Position numbers and translations under genes: made by a program
Source of the DNA: an uncultured Burkholderiales bacterium
GTDB lineage: Bacteria > Pseudomonadota > Gammaproteobacteria > Burkholderiales > SHXO01
Assembly: GCA_964523885.1 (NCBI GenBank)
Contig: CAZFYX010000072.1
Coordinates: 9,240 to 73,239, forward strand
Reading direction: 5' to 3'
Length of the DNA stretch: 64,000 nucleotides
Part shown: positions 52,426-60,200 of the stretch, piece by piece
Numbering within the stretch: position 1 is the stretch's first letter
Layout of the letters: each line of letters starts with the position of its first letter
Notes under the pieces: generated by a model
Told to the model about the DNA's origin: nothing
The model's database searches: none
Seen by the model: the letters and a program-made list of their open reading frames with translations, nothing else

Positions 52426-52659
52426 ATGGCTGATTCAAAGCAGGACGCCTCACTCTCGGGATTGAGCGACTCTGAGGCGAGGGAGTTTCACGCGATCTTC
52501 ATGACCAGCTTCATCGTGTTCCTGATCATCGCCATCGTCGCTCACCTGCTCGTGTGGCAATGGCGCCCGTGGCTTCCGGGCGTGCAGGGCTACGCGTCGC
52601 TGGTTGACGGCGTGAAGGCAGCGGTTCACACCGTCATGCCCTACGTCTACATGGCATAG
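52426..52659 (+). CDS. pufB: Light-harvesting 1 beta polypeptide with a long C-terminal extension
   Basis: 77 aa. [41 protein letters not shown] is the LH beta core with the BChl-ligand His. 25 further residues follow it. Confidence 0.9.
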
Positions 52660-52670
52660 GAGAAATAGAA

Positions 52671-52892
52671 ATGTGGCGTATCTGGCTTTTGTTCGATCCG
52701 CGCAGAACCCTGGTGGCACTGTTCACCTTCCTGTTCGCGCTCGCGCTTCTGATCCACTTCATCCTGCTGTCCACGGACCGCTTCAACTGGCTCGATGGCC
52801 CGCGGCACGCGCGCCCGGCAGCCAAGGCAGCGGCGATGGAGCCGGCGCACGAGAAAGTGGCGGCCGTCCAGACCGGCACGGCAGTCAGATAG
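52671..52892 (+). CDS. pufA: Light-harvesting 1 alpha polypeptide with an Ala/Pro-rich C-terminal extension
   Basis: 73 aa. [41 protein letters not shown] is the LH alpha core. Confidence 0.92.
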
Positions 52893-53003: not shown

Positions 53004-53831
53004 ATGTCCATGCTCAGTTTCGAGAAAAAATACCGCGTCCGTGGCGGGACGCTGATCGGCGGTGACCTGTTCGACTTCTGGGTAGGGCCGTTCTACGTCG
53101 GATTCTTCGGCGTGACGACGCTGTTCTTCTCGGTGTTGGGGACGCTGCTCATCATCTACGGCGCCTCGCAGGGTCCGACCTGGAACCTGTGGGCGATCAA
53201 CATCGAGCCGCCGGACCTCAAGTACGGCCTGGGGCTCGCTCCGCTCCTGGAGGGCGGTCTGTGGCAGATCATCACGATCTGCGCGACCGGCGCCTTCGTG
53301 TCGTGGGCGCTGCGCGAAGTCGAGATCTGCCGCAAGCTCGGCATCGGCTACCACGTGCCGGTGGCCTTCTCGTTCGCGATCGGCGCGTACGTGACGCTGG
53401 TGGTGATCCGGCCGCTGCTGCTCGGCGCCTGGGGTCACGGCTTTCCGTACGGCATTCTCAGTCACCTGGACTGGGTGTCGAACGTCGGATACCAGTACCT
53501 GCATTTCCACTACAACCCGGCGCACATGCTGGCGATCTCGTTCTTCTTCACCACCTGCCTGGCGCTGGCGCTGCACGGATCGCTGATCCTGTCCTGCGTC
53601 AACCCGAAGAAGGGCGAGGTGATCAAGACCGCCGAGTACGAGAACACCTTCTTCCGCGACGCTGTCGGCTACTCGATCGGCGCACTGGGGATCCACAGGC
53701 TGGGTCTGTTCCTGGCGCTGTCGGCCGTGTTCTGGAGCGCGGTATGCATCGTGATCAGCGGCCCGTTCTGGACTCGCGGGTGGCCCGAATGGTGGAACTG
53801 GTGGCTCGAGCTGCCGGTCTGGAAGCTGTAG
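53004..53831 (+). CDS. pufL: Photosynthetic reaction centre L subunit
   Basis: 275 aa. [40 protein letters not shown] and [12 protein letters not shown] are unmistakably PufL. Confidence 0.97.
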
Positions 53832-53846
53832 GGCGAGGAGAGAACA

Positions 53847-54827
53847 ATGGCTGAATACCAGAACATCTTCACCCGGGTGCAGGTGCGGGCGGCCGCGCCC
53901 TACCAGGGGGTGGCGCTGCCCAGCGGTGCCTATCCGCGGTCCTTCAAGGGCGGCTTCAACTACTGGCTGGGAGTGATCGGCGATGCCCAGATCGGCCCGC
54001 TGTACCTGGGCTGGTTCGGCATGGCCTCGCTGCTCTTCGGCTTCATCGCATTCGAGATCATCGGGCTGAACATGTTCGCCTCGGTGAACTGGGATCCGAT
54101 CCAGTTCATCCGCCAGCTGCCATGGCTGGCGCTGGAGCCGCCGAAACCGGAGTACGGGCTGTCGATCCCGCCGCTGAGCGAAGGCGGCTGGTGGCTGATG
54201 GCAGGCTTCTTCCTCACCACCTCGATCCTGCTGTGGTGGGTGCGGATGTACCGGCGCGCGCGGGCGCTCGGGATGGGCACGCACGTGGCGTGGGCGTTCG
54301 CCGCCGCAATCTGGCTCTACCTGGTGCTCGGCTTCATCCGCCCGGTGCTGATGGGAAACTGGGGCGAGGCAGTGCCGTTCGGCATCTTCCCGCATCTGGA
54401 CTGGACGGCGGCGTTCTCGATCCGCTACGGCAACCTGTTCTACAACCCGTTCCACATGCTCTCGATTGCATTCCTGTACGGCTCGGCGCTGCTGTTCGCC
54501 ATGCACGGCGGCACGATCCTGGCGACCAGCTACATGGGTGCGGAGCGCGAGCTCGAGCAGATCACGGACCGGGGCACCGCGGCCGAGCGCGGCGCGCTGT
54601 TCTGGCGCTGGACGATGGGTTTCAACGCCACCATCGAGTCGATCCACCGCTGGGCCTGGTGGTTCGCGGTGCTGTGCCCGCTGACCGGCGGCATCGGCAT
54701 CCTGCTCTCGGGCACCGTGGTGGACAACTGGTACCTGTGGGGCGTCAAGCACGGCATCGCGCCGATGTATCCGCACGTGTTCCCGCCGGTGATCGATCCC
54801 TCGACCATGCAGGGAGTGTCGCAATGA
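53847..54827 (+). CDS. pufM: Photosynthetic reaction centre M subunit
   Basis: 326 aa. [41 protein letters not shown] and WAWWFAV are PufM motifs. Confidence 0.97.
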
Positions 54828-56179
54828 GCCTGTCCACCAGAACATCGCTGCTCCTCGTGCCGCTGGCTGCGGCTGCGATCCTCGCGGGGTGCGAGGCCCC
54901 GCCGATGGACTCCAAGCAACAGGGCTTCCGCGGGACTGGCATGGTGCAGATCACCAACCCCCGCCTGGCGGCATTGAAGGAGGAGGCGAACGTCGTCCCC
55001 GCGACGCTCGATCCGGCCGCGCCCGGCGGGCCGAAGGCAGCGCAGGCGTTCAAGAACGTGCAGGTGCTCGGCGACCTCAGCGGCGGCGAGTTCACCCGCA
55101 CGATGCTGGCGATCACCGAGTGGGTGGCGCCGGAGCAGGGCTGCGCCTACTGTCACGAGGGCGCCGACTTCGCCGCCGACACGCTCTACACCAAGAAGGT
55201 GGCGCGGCGGATGCTGCAGATGACCCGTCATATCAACAGCGACTGGAACTCACACGTCGCCCAGACCGGCGTCACCTGCTACACCTGCCATCGCGGCAAG
55301 CCGGTTCCCGCCAACACCTGGACGATCGCTCCGCCCTCGGATCACGACGGTCTCTACGTCGGTGCGCTCAACGGCCAGAACCTCGCCGCATCCACGGTCG
55401 GCTACACCTCGATGCCGTTCGATCCCTTCACGCTGTTCCTGCAGCAGAAGGGCGAGCTCCGCGTGGTCTCCGACACGGCGCTGCCGGCCGGCAGCAAGCG
55501 CAATATCAAGGAGACCGAGGCGACCTACGGGTTGATGATGTACATCTCCGGCGCGCTGGGCGAGAACTGCACCTTCTGCCACAACAGCCGCTCCTTCAAG
55601 GAGTGGGAGCAGAGCTCGCCAGCTCGGATCACCGCCTGGCATGGGATCCGGATGGTGCGCGACCTCAACAACGCCTACATCGATCCGCTAAAGTCCGACC
55701 TTCCGCCCAAGCGGCTGGGCCCGCTCGGAGACGCGCCGAAGGCTGCGTGCGCCACCTGCCACAACGGTGTCAACAAGCCGCTGTACGGTGCCGCGATGGC
55801 GAAGGAGTACCCGGCAATGGGCCTGGCCCCGGCCGGCGCGGCTCCCGCAAAGAGCGCGGCCGCGAGCGACGCGATCGGAAAGGTGCTGTTCGCGACGGGC
55901 AAGAGCGAGATGTCCGGCGATGCGCAGCAGCAGATCGCAGCCGCCGCCCAGTACCTCACCGCGCATGCCGGGTCCAACGTCGCGCTGTCCGGCTATGCCG
56001 ACAAGAGCGGCAATGCGCAAAAGAATCTCGAACTGGCCAAGCAGCGCGCCTTCGCGGTGCGCGATGCGCTGAAGTCCGCGGGCGTCGCGGAGCAGCGCAT
56101 CGAGCTGCGCAAGCCCCAGTTCGTTATCGGCGAAGCCGTGGCGGATGCCCGGCGCGTCGATATCCTCGCAGTGCAGTAG
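54824..56179 (+). CDS. pufC: Reaction-centre tetrahaem cytochrome c subunit (lipoprotein) with an added C-terminal OmpA/MotB-like domain
   Basis: Real part of ORF 54122..56179. ATG 54824 overlaps the pufM stop (ATGA). Lipobox ILAGC. Four CxxCH motifs (CAYCH, CYTCH, CTFCH, CATCH). After the usual end (KEYPAMG) come an Ala/Pro linker and a 99-aa OmpA_C-like segment (55880-56176). Confidence 0.93.
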
Positions 56180-56205
56180 CGCCCCCCGGCGCGACTTGCG
56201 TTGAA

Positions 56206-56233
56206 AGGCAGCCTTCGGGCTGCCTCTTTTTTT
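56206..56233 (+). terminator. Rho-independent terminator of the puf operon
   Basis: AGGCAGCC-TTCG-GGCTGCCT followed by CTTTTTTT, 27 nt after the pufC stop. Confidence 0.85.
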
Positions 56234-56258
56234 GTGCCGGCCGGGTATAGTCGGCGGC

Positions 56259-56927
56259 ATGCACTCCGAGAGCAGTTCCACCGCCGCTCCCGCGATCGCG
56301 GGCTTTGCCGACGCCATGCGCGAGCGCACCCGGCAGCTGCATGCACGGGCCGAGCGTTCCGGGGTGATCCGTGCGGTGCTGCAGGGGACGGCGCACCCCC
56401 TGGCGTACGCGCTCCTGCTGCGCAACCTGCTGCCGGCGTACCGGGCGCTGGAGCTCGGACTCGAGCGCAATGCAGCCGCCTTGGGCGAGCTCGCGCAACC
56501 CGGCGTATTCCGCGCAACCCGCATCGAGCATGATCTCGCCGCCCTCTGCGGGCCGGCATGGCGCGGCCTCGCGCTCCTGCCGGCCGGCGCCCGCTACGCC
56601 GCGCGTGTCGCCACCGTCGCCGCGCACTCCGACGCGCGACTTGCTGCGCACGCCTACGTGCGGCTGCTCGGCGACCTGAACGGGGGACAACTGATGCGCA
56701 ACGCCCTGGCACGCGGGCTCCGGCTGCCGACCGCAGCGCTGTCGTTCTATGAGTTCCCGGGGAGTGCCGAGCCGGCCGACCTTCGCCGCAGGTATCGCGC
56801 GGCGTTCGATCGACTGGATCTAAGCGCGGAGTCGCGCGAGCGCGCCCTGGCCGAGGCCGAGCTCGCATTCGAGCTCAACATCGCCGTGTCGGAATCGGTC
56901 GCGCGCGCGGTGCCGCCGAAGGCCTGA
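56259..56927 (+). CDS. bphO: Heme oxygenase (biliverdin-producing, BphO-type)
   Basis: Frame of ORF 56232..56927, with ATG at 56259. MRERTRQLHARAERSGVIRAVLQG and YVRLLGDLNGGQ are heme-oxygenase-family motifs. Convergent with bphP. Confidence 0.8.
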   Translation: MHSESSSTAAPAIAGFADAMRERTRQLHARAERSGVIRAVLQGTAHPLAYALLLRNLLPAYRALELGLERNAAALGELAQPGVFRATRIEHDLAALCGPAWRGLALLPAGARYAARVATVAAHSDARLAAHAYVRLLGDLNGGQLMRNALARGLRLPTAALSFYEFPGSAEPADLRRRYRAAFDRLDLSAESRERALAEAELAFELNIAVSESVARAVPPKA

Positions 56928-56936
56928 GCGCGCCGG

Positions 56937-59129
56937 CTACCTGCCGGGTTCGCGGCCCGTATCGTTGCCTGCCGAGTGCCAGATCAGCAGCTGCAGCAGC
57001 TTTGCGGTGCGGTTCACCGAGTTGCGCACGCTGTCCAGCGCCTCCGGCATGCACGCCGGATCCACCCCGTCGGTGATCTCGAGCGCTGCGAGCTGCGCAT
57101 TATTCACCACCGAAGCGAGCAGGTTGCGGTAGACCAGGTCGGCCTTCGAATCGAGCGGCACACTCATCACGCGATGCCGATCGATGATGTCCTCCTGGAA
57201 ACGGCGCCGCGCGGCGTCCGCTGCCTTGCGCTCGGTGAGATCGGTGAACAGCAGGACGAAGCCGAGCGCGCGCTCGGCGGACGCGAGCACCGGATCGCCG
57301 CGGACCAGCAGCGGGCGCGCGCTGTCGCCCTGCACCAGGCCGACTTCGGCGCGCCACGGCCGGCGCTGGCGCTGCAGCTCGCGCAGGCTGCGGCGCACCT
57401 CCGTCGACCTGGTGAACAGCGGCGCGAGCTCGTCGAGCTTGCGCGGCTGCGGATCACTGCCGGCGAGCAGCTGCTGGAATGCAGCATTCATGACCAGGAT
57501 CGCGCCGTCCGCGTCCGCGATGATGACCGGTTGGTCCGAACCCCGGACCTGGCGCGAGGCCTGGGCCACCTGGTCCTGCGCGATCAACATGCGTACCGAG
57601 CGGAACTGCAGCACCACGTCGGACACCGATTCGCCGATGAGCCGCGCGGTCGCGAGATCCGCGGGCGTCCATGGATCGGCAGTGCCTTCGACCACCTGAT
57701 GCCACTGCGCGAAGGACCGGCGCGGTGATAGCTGGGTGGGATCGTTGCCGATGGTGAAGGCCTTGAACGGGTTGCCGCCCCAGGTCACGGTACGCACCCG
57801 CTCGGGCCTGAACCAGAGCAGGTATTCACCCGGCGAAGCCGACACGCGGGTGGCCAGCACGCCGCTCGCCATCGGCGTGAGGCTGGCGAACCGTGCCTCG
57901 TCACGGCCCAGCGACGAGGTCCAGATCAGCGGTGCACTCGAGCGGGTGTCGAGCCAGCGGCCGAGATCGCGCAGCTCGGCGGTGCCGGGTACCTCGCCCG
58001 CGGTGAGGATGGTGCCGTCGAACAGCAGCGCGGCGCCGCTGGCGTCGACCGGCTGCAGCACGGAAGCGGTGCCGTCGAACAGCGCAGTACGCCAGTCGCC
58101 CTCGCGGCCGATGGCCTCGATCATGCGCTGCTCGAGCCGGCGGACCGACAGCTCGGCCTGCGCCTGGGCGAAGCTCTCCAGCGCAGCGACGCGGGTGGCC
58201 ACGGCCTCGGCCAGCAGCTCGCACAGGGCGCGGATCTCGTAGTGCACGAAGCGCGGCACGTAATGGTGGCAGGCGATCAGGCCCCACAGCTTGCCGTTGA
58301 CCATGAGCGAGGCGACGAGCGTCGCGCACACGCCCATGTTCTCGAGATACTGGATGTGGATCGGCGACATGCTGCGCAGGAAGCACAGCGACATGTCCAG
58401 GCCCTGCCCGCTCAGCGGCGAGGCAGACGGGGACAATGGAACCTGCTCCGCGTTCACGTCGACCAGCACGCGGACCCGGTTGCGCTCGTAGAGTCGGCGG
58501 GCGATCTGCGGAATGTCGGAGGCCGGGTAGCGATTGCCGAGGTAGGGCTCGAGCCGCTGCTCGCGCCGCTCGGAGAACACCTCGCCATGCCCCTCGTCGT
58601 CGAAGCGGTAGACCATCACCCGGTCATAGCCGATGAGGTCCTTGAACAGCCGCGCGGTCTCGTCGCCCAGGGCACGCAGGGAGGTGCACGTGAGGATCGC
58701 CTGCAGCGCGGATTCCACGTGCCGCGACACCTCGACACAGGGCCCGGCGCGCTCCAGTTCGATGAGCAGGCCGCCGCCGGCGGGGCGGTGGATCAGTGCG
58801 TCGTACTCCGCGTCGGCGGGGCCGATCCGGCAGCGCACGGCGATGGGAATGGCTTCCAGAGCGTCCTGCAGGCGTGGCTGGATGCGCTCCGCGAGGTTGC
58901 CCTTCAGATCCTTAAGGCGCATCCCCAGCACCTGGCCCTCGAGGGCCAGGAAGGCGGCGGCGTTCTCGCTCGCCTGCACGATCACCTGGTCGGCTTCGCG
59001 CACGAGCAGCAGGGCGCCATGCGGCTGGATCGAGCCGGCGAACTGGATCTGCTCGCGCTCGCAGTTGGACAGGTCCGCCTGTCCGAAGGCGGGGGCCGGA
59101 TGCGCAGCCTGGGTGTCCCGGGTGTTCAC
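56937..59129 (-). CDS. bphP: Bacteriophytochrome, PAS-GAF-PHY plus C-terminal PAS and short helical output; no histidine-kinase ATPase domain
   Basis: 730 aa. The biliverdin Cys context is DLSNCEREQIQFAGSIQPHG. The GAF region has DIPQIARRLY and RSMSPIHIQYLENMG. The C-terminus ends about 80 aa after a PAS domain, with no N/G1/G2 boxes. Confidence 0.92.
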   Translation of the reverse strand: MNTRDTQAAHPAPAFGQADLSNCEREQIQFAGSIQPHGALLLVREADQVIVQASENAAAFLALEGQVLGMRLKDLKGNLAERIQPRLQDALEAIPIAVRCRIGPADAEYDALIHRPAGGGLLIELERAGPCVEVSRHVESALQAILTCTSLRALGDETARLFKDLIGYDRVMVYRFDDEGHGEVFSERREQRLEPYLGNRYPASDIPQIARRLYERNRVRVLVDVNAEQVPLSPSASPLSGQGLDMSLCFLRSMSPIHIQYLENMGVCATLVASLMVNGKLWGLIACHHYVPRFVHYEIRALCELLAEAVATRVAALESFAQAQAELSVRRLEQRMIEAIGREGDWRTALFDGTASVLQPVDASGAALLFDGTILTAGEVPGTAELRDLGRWLDTRSSAPLIWTSSLGRDEARFASLTPMASGVLATRVSASPGEYLLWFRPERVRTVTWGGNPFKAFTIGNDPTQLSPRRSFAQWHQVVEGTADPWTPADLATARLIGESVSDVVLQFRSVRMLIAQDQVAQASRQVRGSDQPVIIADADGAILVMNAAFQQLLAGSDPQPRKLDELAPLFTRSTEVRRSLRELQRQRRPWRAEVGLVQGDSARPLLVRGDPVLASAERALGFVLLFTDLTERKAADAARRRFQEDIIDRHRVMSVPLDSKADLVYRNLLASVVNNAQLAALEITDGVDPACMPEALDSVRNSVNRTAKLLQLLIWHSAGNDTGREPGR

Positions 59130-59147: not shown

Positions 59148-60200
59148 TTACTCGGTCCGCGACCCGCTGCGGGCATCTCGCTCCCGGCGATGGCGCGCGA
59201 GCGCTGTCGCCAGGCGGCGCGCGCTGATCCCGAGCAGCTGCGCGGCGCGGACCTTGTCGCCACCGGCGGCCTTCATCGCGCGCGTGATGAAGGCCTGCTC
59301 GTAGAGCTGCACCACTTCGCGTACCAGCGCATCGAGCGATTGCCTGCCTACCCGCGAGTCCAGCAGCCTGGAAGCTCCGGCGTCGAGGGTCGGCGCACCG
59401 TCCTCCTCGCCCAGTTCGCCCAGACCGGTCACGACGTCGCCGATGCTGGCTGGCTGGGCCTTCTCCTGTGCGCCAGCGGAGGCGAGCTGGAGCATGAACA
59501 TGAGCCCGCTCTCTGCCTGCATCAGCGATGCACGCACCAGCCACTGCGAGCGGCGTGGACCGAGGTGCACGAGGATTCCCGGCGAGGTGCCCTGCTCGCG
59601 CACGGTGCGCAGCATGGCCTGCAGCGGGTCGTGATCGGTGGCTGCGACGTCGCCGAGCAGCGGACGGTTGACGAAGTCGGCGCCCTTTGCCAGCTCGAGG
59701 GCGCGCAATGCCGCCGGGTTCGCCTCGACGATGTCGAGCGAGGCCGCGCGCAGCAGCAGCACCGCCTCGCCCGAGGTCTCGAACAGCAGCCGGTAGCGCG
59801 TCTCGATGTCGCGCAGCTTCCAGAAGTCGCGCTCCATCTCGCGCTGCGCGGCAAGGAAGCGCTGCTGCAGGCCAGCCATCGCCTGCAGGTTCTTGCCCAC
59901 GGCGATGAGGCCCGAGCGCCCGCCCAGGCGTACGGTGGTGTATTCGATCAGCAGCTCGAGACCGCTGGGGAAACGCTGCGTCACCTGGCGGAAGGCCGAG
60001 ACGCGCCGCCGGCGCGCGTCCTCCACCATGCGGCGGACCTTGTTGCCGCCGGCATCCGCGACCGTGTCCACCCAGGGCTTGCCGACCCAGTTCTCGAGAC
60101 CCTGGTCGGCCAGCGTGCTGGCCACGCTCACTTCCTGGATCACGCCATCGAGGTTGAGGCGCAGCGTGACATCGGGCTGTGCGATGTTCACAACATTCAT
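59148..60200 (-). CDS. ppsR: PpsR/CrtJ-type photosynthesis repressor, short form (350 aa)
   Basis: It has an N-terminal PAS-like domain, a Q-linker-like helix (LQQRFLAAQREMERDFWKLRDIETRYRLLFE), one PAS domain and a Fis-type HTH (GGDKVRAAQLLGISARRLATAL). It lies 18 bp upstream of bphP on the same strand. Confidence 0.85.
   Translation of the reverse strand: MNVVNIAQPDVTLRLNLDGVIQEVSVASTLADQGLENWVGKPWVDTVADAGGNKVRRMVEDARRRRVSAFRQVTQRFPSGLELLIEYTTVRLGGRSGLIAVGKNLQAMAGLQQRFLAAQREMERDFWKLRDIETRYRLLFETSGEAVLLLRAASLDIVEANPAALRALELAKGADFVNRPLLGDVAATDHDPLQAMLRTVREQGTSPGILVHLGPRRSQWLVRASLMQAESGLMFMLQLASAGAQEKAQPASIGDVVTGLGELGEEDGAPTLDAGASRLLDSRVGRQSLDALVREVVQLYEQAFITRAMKAAGGDKVRAAQLLGISARRLATALARHRRERDARSGSRTE

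Follow-up and report, generated by a model that had tools for sequence, protein, structure and literature searches.

In a 64,000-nucleotide stretch of DNA from an uncultured Burkholderiales bacterium (GTDB lineage SHXO01; assembly GCA_964523885.1, contig CAZFYX010000072.1, positions 9,240 to 73,239 of the forward strand; henceforth the window), the last gene of the puf operon, pufC, encodes the tetrahaem cytochrome subunit of the photosynthetic reaction centre (RC) joined in one polypeptide to a C-terminal OmpA-like domain. The fusion is real and widespread, combines two familiar parts and, as far as we searched, has not been described. Judging from the sequence, the PufC tail is probably a flexible tether that would link the RC core, with or without light-harvesting complex 1 (LH1), to the sacculus by binding peptidoglycan. 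All coordinates given here are window positions and all residue numbers are those of the PufC of the window.

A reaction-centre cytochrome with an OmpA-like tail

The open reading frame (ORF) of pufC (54824–56179, + strand) runs uninterrupted through 451 codons to a TAG stop (56177–56179). It begins with a signal peptide that ends in the lipobox LAGC, whose Cys23, conserved in at least 90% of 119 homologues, is presumed to be lipid-modified and to form the mature N-terminus; an AlphaFold2 (AF2) model places a helix over residues 2–22. The domain that follows matches PF02276 (CytoC_RC) over profile positions 1–309 of 310 (E=3.2e-140, 467 bits against a cut-off of 22.4) and carries four CxxCH motifs, CAYCH (residues 107–111, nt 55142–55156), CYTCH (152–156, nt 55277–55291), CTFCH (249–253, nt 55568–55582) and CATCH (309–313, nt 55748–55762), all of them invariant in the 119 homologues. 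The closest sequences in the PDB are RC cytochrome subunits (e.g. 8wdu_C, E=9e-122), with matches reaching E=1e-122. Profile, haem motifs, lipobox and place in the operon, i.e. every sequence criterion available, identify this part as a PufC, which would bind to the RC and donate electrons to its special pair.

Beyond the cytochrome the frame continues into an Ala/Pro-rich linker of about 20 residues. It is disordered, with a predicted local distance difference test score (pLDDT) below 50 at residues 336–348 of the full-length model, and in the 119 homologues it measures 16–59 aa (median 24; 35% Ala, 14% Pro, 10% Gly). Stretched out, a linker of this kind would measure about 8 nm at most, and it leaves the cytochrome, itself about 7 nm tall, at some way below the top.

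The tail that this linker carries, which lies on the periplasmic side, is recognised by PF00691 (OmpA) over residues 355–428 (E=4.9e-12, 46.5 bits, gathering cut-off 27.2), or at E=4.2e-13 and 49.9 bits when scanned alone. The match spans model positions 1–76 of 98, and the terminal ARRVDI strand is still present. We call the domain shortened because the Pfam match ends at position 76; it is not a fragment. An AF2 model of residues 352–451, computed from 23 aligned homologous tails, reaches a mean pLDDT of 86 and shows a beta-alpha-beta-alpha-beta-beta order, with strands at tail positions 2–5, 34–41, 75–77 and 93–99 and helices at 14–29, 47–67 and 88–92. When this model was compared with the PDB using Foldseek, the top matches were only peptidoglycan-binding OmpA-like domains (query template-modelling score, TMq, 0.78–0.90; E down to 7e-10). 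They include Pal of Acinetobacter baumannii (4g4w, TMq 0.86, E=7e-10), an OmpA C-like domain (9uu2, TMq 0.90) and the diaminopimelate complex of the A. baumannii OmpA domain (3td4, TMq 0.87), and further Pal of Escherichia coli and Burkholderia, OprF-C, YfiB, TagL and YiaD. The OmpA-like identity is also borne out by sequence searches of the PDB. A full-length AF2 model, for which 119 sequences were used, shows cytochrome and tail domain each with good confidence; the disordered linker and the predicted template-modelling score (pTM) of 0.63 fit two modules without a fixed mutual orientation.

The residues expected of a peptidoglycan-binding pocket can also be located. In a HMMER alignment to A. 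baumannii Pal (4g4v), D393 (codon at nt 56000–56002), N401 and R408 (codon at nt 56045–56047) fall on the Asp, Asn and Arg of the GHTD...N...RRA motif. D393 precedes R408 by 15 residues, just as D271 precedes R286 in A. baumannii OmpA, where this Asp and Arg contact diaminopimelate. A profile search of the six-frame translation of the window found the pufC copy of the domain and no second one.

The initial annotation of the window, made from its letters, had described a complete PufC with lipobox and four haem motifs, a frame without a stop leading through an Ala/Pro linker to a protein of 451 aa, and a tail of OmpA-like fold that retains the Asp and Arg of peptidoglycan-binding domains. Profile and structure searches recognised that fold, the two residues are D393 and R408, and the interval that had been singled out, 55800–56179, covers both the linker and the domain (Table 1), so that this description stands throughout.

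Conservation of the fused gene in Burkholderiales

We searched a collection of 5.8 billion proteins with the PufC of the window and considered the best 120 matches. Both PF02276 and PF00691 were present in one ORF in 118 of them, at 53–97% identity and lengths of 444–503 aa. The nearest is a metagenome protein (P0001) that is 97% identical, and the names found among the homologues are PufC of Burkholderiales, Burkholderiaceae, Casimicrobiaceae, Variovorax and Ideonella. A scan of GTDB, with one genome per species, for the motif AK.RA[FML]AVRD confirmed 560 loci; among the best 80 of these 560, which we examined, 24 are fused pufC genes. All 24 belong to Burkholderiales; among their carriers are a cultured strain, Variovorax rhizosphaerae KACC 18900 (L068), and metagenome-assembled genomes (MAGs) of Hydrogenophaga and Rubrivivax. 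The fusion is the norm in a large Burkholderiales PufC clade.

These numbers also settle whether the ORF of the window could be an artefact, in which pufC and a small OmpA-family gene were merged by a frameshift or a lost stop, a concern already voiced in the initial annotation. Nothing speaks for such a merge beyond the general prior that draft assemblies hold them. The same fused ORF is kept in more than 100 independent assemblies, over the whole range of identities given above, and in the 24 species genomes, including that of a cultured strain. The OmpA-like domain moreover has no signal peptide of its own, so that a separate product could not reach the periplasm. With the two domains joined in a single ORF in 118 of the 120 best homologues, neither chance nor an artefact can account for the fusion, and we attach a negligible probability to the merge.

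In the alignment of 119 proteins the tail is constrained at least as strongly as the cytochrome, while the linker varies in length and sequence. Purifying selection acts on the motif residues: S389, G390, G396, N401, L404, R408 and V412 are invariant, as are R413, G420, P431, R443, R444 and V445, and D393 is present in 106 of the 119 fused homologues. In 12 or 13 of the 119 the segment SGFADKTGN is replaced by SGFHSASGD, with loss of the motif Asp and an Asp four positions later. These variants differ in the last strands as well (KPMSAEANLAG.DPKARRV), and may represent a sub-lineage with altered ligand binding.

Among close relatives only P0003 (359 aa, 77% identical) and P0046 (347 aa, 68% identical) are without the tail; given the fused state of the wider clade, deletion is the best reading of both. 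The locus of P0046 (L081) is syntenic with the window, sharing pufC, haem oxygenase, bacteriophytochrome and a PpsR-like regulator. Comparison of positions 1081–1260 of L081 with 55780–56240 of the window shows that pufC ends in GCA ATG CGG TAG followed by CGCCCCCCGGCGCGACTGGCGTTCAGGCAGCCTTCGGGCTGCCTCTTTTT in the former, and in GCA GTG CAG TAG followed by CGCCCCCCGGCGCGACTTGCGTTGAAAGGCAGCCTTCGGGCTGCCTCTTTTTTT in the latter. L081 keeps the last codons, the 3' untranslated region and the terminator, and the stretch of about 300 nt that codes for the domain is missing in frame. P0003 ends in NRVAETPRNNLAVQ, a protein end from which a similar in-frame deletion appears probable. The tail is selected in most lineages, and the tail-less natural alleles (L081, P0003) could serve as comparators.

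The same short domain on other Burkholderiales proteins

The remaining 56 of the 80 loci examined carry the same short OmpA-like subfamily on proteins other than PufC (e.g. L018, L020, L036, L071, L023, L073 and L077). At 27 loci it forms the C-terminus of the H+-pyrophosphatase HppA, at 12 that of cytochrome oxidase subunit II (CoxB) with a cytochrome c domain, and at three that of CcoP of the cbb3 oxidase. At eight loci it stands at the N-terminus of the ammonium channel Amt, after the signal peptide, and at one it is internal to a dihaem cytochrome c; the last five loci are small proteins with one transmembrane helix, or truncated contigs. Throughout, the carriers are joined to the domain via Ala/Pro-rich linkers. 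The termini that bear it face the periplasm, according to the established topology of AmtB, membrane-bound pyrophosphatases, CoxB and CcoP.

Domain identity is 57–82% within a carrier class and about 48–51% between classes. This clustering by carrier argues that each fusion is old and separately maintained, with no recent shuffling. In 81 domains drawn from all carrier classes the motif Asn and Arg never vary, and 80 of the domains retain the Asp. Two different fusions may occur in a single genome, as with PufC (L019) and HppA (L038) in JANNYE01, CoxB (L027) and HppA (L062) in JADJWD01, and Amt (L074) and CcoP (L076) in Ottowia thiooxydans. The short subfamily is specific to Burkholderiales, and since it is found on other inner-membrane proteins of energy metabolism and transport, PufC looks like one case of a wider habit of stapling such proteins to the wall. 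A 2024 review (PMC11210485) notes that the membrane H+-pyrophosphatase of Paucibacter and further Burkholderiales has an OmpA-like domain at its C-terminus and leaves its role open; PufC is not mentioned there. Among the literature found, this pyrophosphatase is the only one of these carrier fusions to be mentioned.

Independent PufC–OmpA fusions in other lineages

When 1.84 billion cluster representatives were searched exhaustively with HMMER, 245 proved PufC-like at E<1e-30, and 18 of the best 150 carry an OmpA-like C-terminal domain. Their fusions fall into at least three designs. The first is the short type of the window (P0138, P0159, P0160, P0175 and fragments). In the second, a full-length canonical OmpA_C follows a short linker (P0163, P0174, P0195, P0190 and P0162). 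P0190 is a protein of a Myxococcota MAG (MEM6530980.1, 494 aa), and P0162 (501 aa) has Asp-rich repeats resembling thrombospondin type 3 between the PufC and OmpA domains; both have an N-terminal transmembrane helix in place of the lipobox. When P0174 was used for a follow-up search, about 73 of its 120 best relatives were fused, those with a name being Sphingomonas sp. (MAGs), and the same match list holds PufCs of about 365 aa from Sphingomonas and Novosphingobium that have no such fusion. The fused PufCs of this Sphingomonadales type, exemplified by P0174, P0195, P0163 and P0316, are some 475–540 aa long.

The third design comprises giant PufCs of 689–1323 aa, in which an acidic Ala/Pro/Glu region and coiled-coil repeats (ARLDQER.ALQQQL.VVR.QRD, in 5–12 copies) lie between the cytochrome and a canonical OmpA_C (65–84 bits, positions 1–98 of 98), the spacer amounting to 300–900 aa in total. 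Their sources are Chromatiaceae, namely Thiocapsa roseopersicina (WP_245731767.1 / UniRef A0A1H2TVR2, 886/945 aa; P0165/P0293/P0294) and a Halochromatium MAG (NEX15064.1, 1102 aa; P0143); other giant representatives are P0147, P0149, P0157 and P0152, the last of which (1532 aa) appears to be of the giant design with a frameshifted end. Fused PufCs are abundant in public databases under automatic names, and A0A1H2TVR2 is called 'Outer membrane protein OmpA' in one source.

The OmpA domain of Thiocapsa is 30% identical to that of the window. Given this low identity and PufC moieties that come from different clades, the fusions are independent, and PufC and OmpA have been joined in at least four lineages besides Burkholderiales, namely Sphingomonadales, Chromatiaceae, the source of the Myxococcota MAG and the lineage with thrombospondin-type-3 repeats. 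Such convergence argues that the joining of PufC to a wall-binding module has been selected.

The convergence also bears on the possibility that the domain is a generic envelope staple or spacer, placed on abundant inner-membrane proteins with periplasmic ends, for which PufC is merely a convenient carrier. The presence of one subfamily on HppA, CoxB, CcoP, Amt and small membrane-anchored proteins, often several per genome, fits this view, as does the fact that pufC stays intact after loss of the domain in close relatives. However, PufC–OmpA fusions are also found in Chromatiaceae, Sphingomonadales and Myxococcota, where we saw no general fusion habit, which points to something specific about the RC cytochrome, and the clustering of domains by partner tells of fusions that are each old and separately maintained. 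We therefore consider a generic staple rather unlikely, with the reservation that it overlaps with a tether of the RC: both involve peptidoglycan binding and they differ in the benefit only.

A different C-terminal module of about 60 aa was seen in two PufCs, once in P0142 (531 aa, cluster of nine members) and twice in P0146 (691 aa). It follows the pattern GRLQFHSAPD..C.M.G.F...GE.V.A......G.T.V.YRN.RT......GWV....L, has no Pfam match even at E=10, and by eye resembles a bacterial SH3-like domain.

A probable leash between reaction centre and sacculus

How might the fused protein work? Its N-terminal module is an ordinary tetrahaem cytochrome, presumably lipid-anchored, that would sit on the L and M subunits and re-reduce the special pair, the mature cytochrome being held on the periplasmic face by the lipid anchor and the RC. 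The OmpA-like module would bind the meso-diaminopimelate stem peptide of peptidoglycan non-covalently, through a pocket formed by Asp393, Asn401 and Arg408, much as MotB, Pal and the C-domain of OmpA bind it. The flexible linker would thus leash every RC(-LH1) core of the cytoplasmic membrane to the sacculus, with the outcome that the lateral mobility of the core would be limited, that the local distance between membrane and wall above the ~7-nm cytochrome would be fixed, or both. Cells that have no intracytoplasmic membranes could in this way restrict the diffusion of RC-LH1 or position it. Other possible benefits are a set spacing of wall and membrane above the protruding cytochrome, by which soluble donors could reach the distal haem, and a general coupling of the envelope.

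Several observations weigh against such a leash. The domain is shorter than the Pfam model, and its pocket could differ as a consequence. The motif Asp is replaced in 12 of the 119 fused PufCs, those with the FHSASGD variant. P0003 and P0046 (L081) lost the tail by in-frame deletion, so that in some settings it can be done without. Of the RC cytochrome chains in the PDB (311–405 aa) none has an OmpA-like domain, and none matched residues 355–428. Lastly, we infer rather than observe the binding of peptidoglycan, the survival of the tail in the mature subunit, the geometric reach of the linker and the physiological benefit.

The first two of these points would also suit a domain with a ligand other than peptidoglycan, one that docks onto another periplasmic or outer-membrane partner or that oligomerises RC-LH1 cores into arrays. 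Many OmpA-like domains dimerise, Pal binds TolB through the same face (one of the top structural matches is 2hqs), and OmpA-like domains of the YfiB type work in signalling complexes. On the other hand, docking to a specific partner is hard to square with one module shared by PufC, HppA, CoxB, CcoP and Amt, and the motif-aligned Asn and Arg (and the Asp in all but one of 81 domains) are retained across all six partner classes. The independent fusions of other lineages, furthermore, use OmpA_C domains that are fully canonical over the whole length of the model. Taken together, this makes a different ligand improbable, and we prefer the tether to the sacculus.

In a wider sense, RCs may be leashed to the wall via their cytochrome, an arrangement evolved repeatedly, and Burkholderiales may in addition staple CoxB, CcoP, the H+-pyrophosphatase and the ammonium channel to peptidoglycan with one dedicated mini-OmpA module, which would amount to a general strategy not yet described; we offer this only tentatively. 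The tethers would then be of 20 aa in Burkholderiales, short in Sphingomonadales and Myxococcota, and coiled coils of 300–900 aa in purple sulfur bacteria, a picture that is conceivable although we hold it with some reserve. The RCs of purple sulfur bacteria lie in vesicular intracytoplasmic membranes, and it is tempting to speculate that tether length is matched to the distance of the wall, with a long rope in these bacteria and a short one in Burkholderiales and Sphingomonadales.

To our knowledge, structural and kinetic models all treat RC-LH1 cores as freely diffusing, with the cytochrome cap simply facing the periplasm. If the leash exists, cores would be pinned to the sacculus in many aerobic phototrophs of fresh water and soil, and also in some of the classic purple sulfur bacteria, with consequences for the positioning of photosynthetic patches in cells that have no intracytoplasmic membranes and for the access of soluble donors to a distal haem close to the wall. 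Stapling by mini-OmpA domains would likewise impose spatial order on the energy-transducing inner membrane. The module found on oxidases, pyrophosphatase and Amt suggests a lineage-wide coupling of inner membrane to wall that is genetically testable in culturable Burkholderiales. The tails would have been missed so far, as no RC structure has been solved from a lineage with fused PufC. We found no description of a PufC–OmpA fusion in the full-text literature, judged mostly by titles and abstracts and with subscription-only papers outside the coverage, and a dedicated survey of PufC distribution (PMC6920907) does not mention it. The initial annotation had presented the protein as a hitherto undescribed RC subunit with a cell-wall-binding domain; its novelty is upheld by this search. 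The fusion is no singular case, being the norm in its clade and having arisen independently in at least four other lineages.

The puf operon of the window and its surroundings

The genes run in the order pufB-A-L-M-C on the + strand, with bchY/Z-like genes upstream of pufB and pufA, and pufC comes last, directly after pufL and pufM (Table 1). Both LH1 polypeptides are long (PufB 77 aa, PufA 73 aa). The beta chain (PufB) runs about 27 residues beyond the WRPWL motif, the usual end of LH1-beta, and the alpha chain (PufA) is extended at its C-terminus by a stretch in which Ala, Pro and Lys abound.

The strong terminator that had been noted 27 nt after the pufC stop was found as described, with a stem of 8 bp (56206–56225, 6 GC, loop TTCG) before the T-run, and the same stem-loop is kept in the syntenic locus L081. 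Immediately past it come genes for a haem oxygenase, a bacteriophytochrome (PAS_2-GAF-PHY with a C-terminal PAS, and no kinase domain detected with Pfam) and a PpsR-like regulator, an arrangement shared with L081. Such a set of genes suggests that the photosynthesis gene cluster is controlled by red or far-red light.

Table 1. Features of the puf operon, of the fused PufC and of the adjacent genes in the window
Feature	Coordinates	Strand	Basis and remarks
pufB (LH1 beta)	52426–52659	+	ORF and typical LH1 motifs in translation; opens the puf operon
pufA (LH1 alpha)	52671–52892	+	ORF and typical LH1 motifs in translation
pufL	53004–53831	+	ORF list and translation
pufM	53847–54827	+	ORF list and translation; stop overlaps the pufC ATG
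PufC signal peptide, lipobox LAGC	54824–54892	+	Translation
Tetrahaem RC cytochrome domain, residues 24–332	54893–55819	+	PF02276
Ala/Pro-rich linker, residues 333–351	55820–55876	+	Low pLDDT, variable in homologues
OmpA-like domain, residues 352–451	55877–56176, stop to 56179	+	PF00691, AF2, Foldseek
Intrinsic terminator, end of puf operon	56206–56235	+	Stem-loop then T-run
Haem oxygenase	56232–56927	+	Pfam PF01126
Bacteriophytochrome	56937–59129	-	PAS_2/GAF/PHY
PpsR-like regulator	59148–60200	-	PAS and HTH_8

Comparison with known systems

With canonical PufCs (Blastochloris viridis, 1PRC; Thermochromatium tepidum, 3WMM/5Y5S; Allochromatium, 8WDU) the protein of the window shares the lipobox Cys, the four CxxCH motifs, a full-length match to PF02276 and the last place in pufBALMC. 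The solved chains either stop where the cytochrome fold ends or soon afterwards, or run on into 50–70 aa of disordered Ala/Pro/Glu tail, whereas here an extra folded domain of 100 aa follows.

That domain shares its fold (TMq 0.8–0.9) with the PF00691 domains of Pal, OmpA-C, OprF-C and MotB-C, and also the motif SG(Y/F)AD...N..L...RA and the terminal RRV(D/E)I strand. It is about 20 residues shorter than the canonical domains, the loop and helix G.GE..P...N....GR..NRRVEI between beta3 and the last strand being compressed. It also ends a redox protein, while domains of the Pal/OmpA type sit on an outer-membrane barrel or lipoprotein.

In layout the closest parallels are the MotB/PomB stators, YiaD of E. 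coli and TagL of the type VI secretion system, which have the same topology of a cytoplasmic-membrane anchor, a flexible periplasmic linker and a C-terminal OmpA-like module; the PufC of the window has the corresponding lipobox, a linker with pLDDT below 50 and a folded terminal domain. In those systems anchoring is intrinsic to a mechanical function, as in a stator or a secretion baseplate, but the cargo here transfers electrons and would not obviously need a point of mechanical reference.

The H+-pyrophosphatase of Burkholderiales (PMC11210485) bears the same short subfamily within the same taxonomic order, again with an Ala/Pro linker on a periplasmic terminus, and differs in its carrier. 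The giant PufCs of Chromatiaceae likewise unite PufC and a C-terminal OmpA domain in one polypeptide. They are of independent origin, with a full-length OmpA_C (GHTDS.G...NRRVEI) and a spacer of 300–900 aa, in contrast to the shortened domain and short linker of the Burkholderiales protein.

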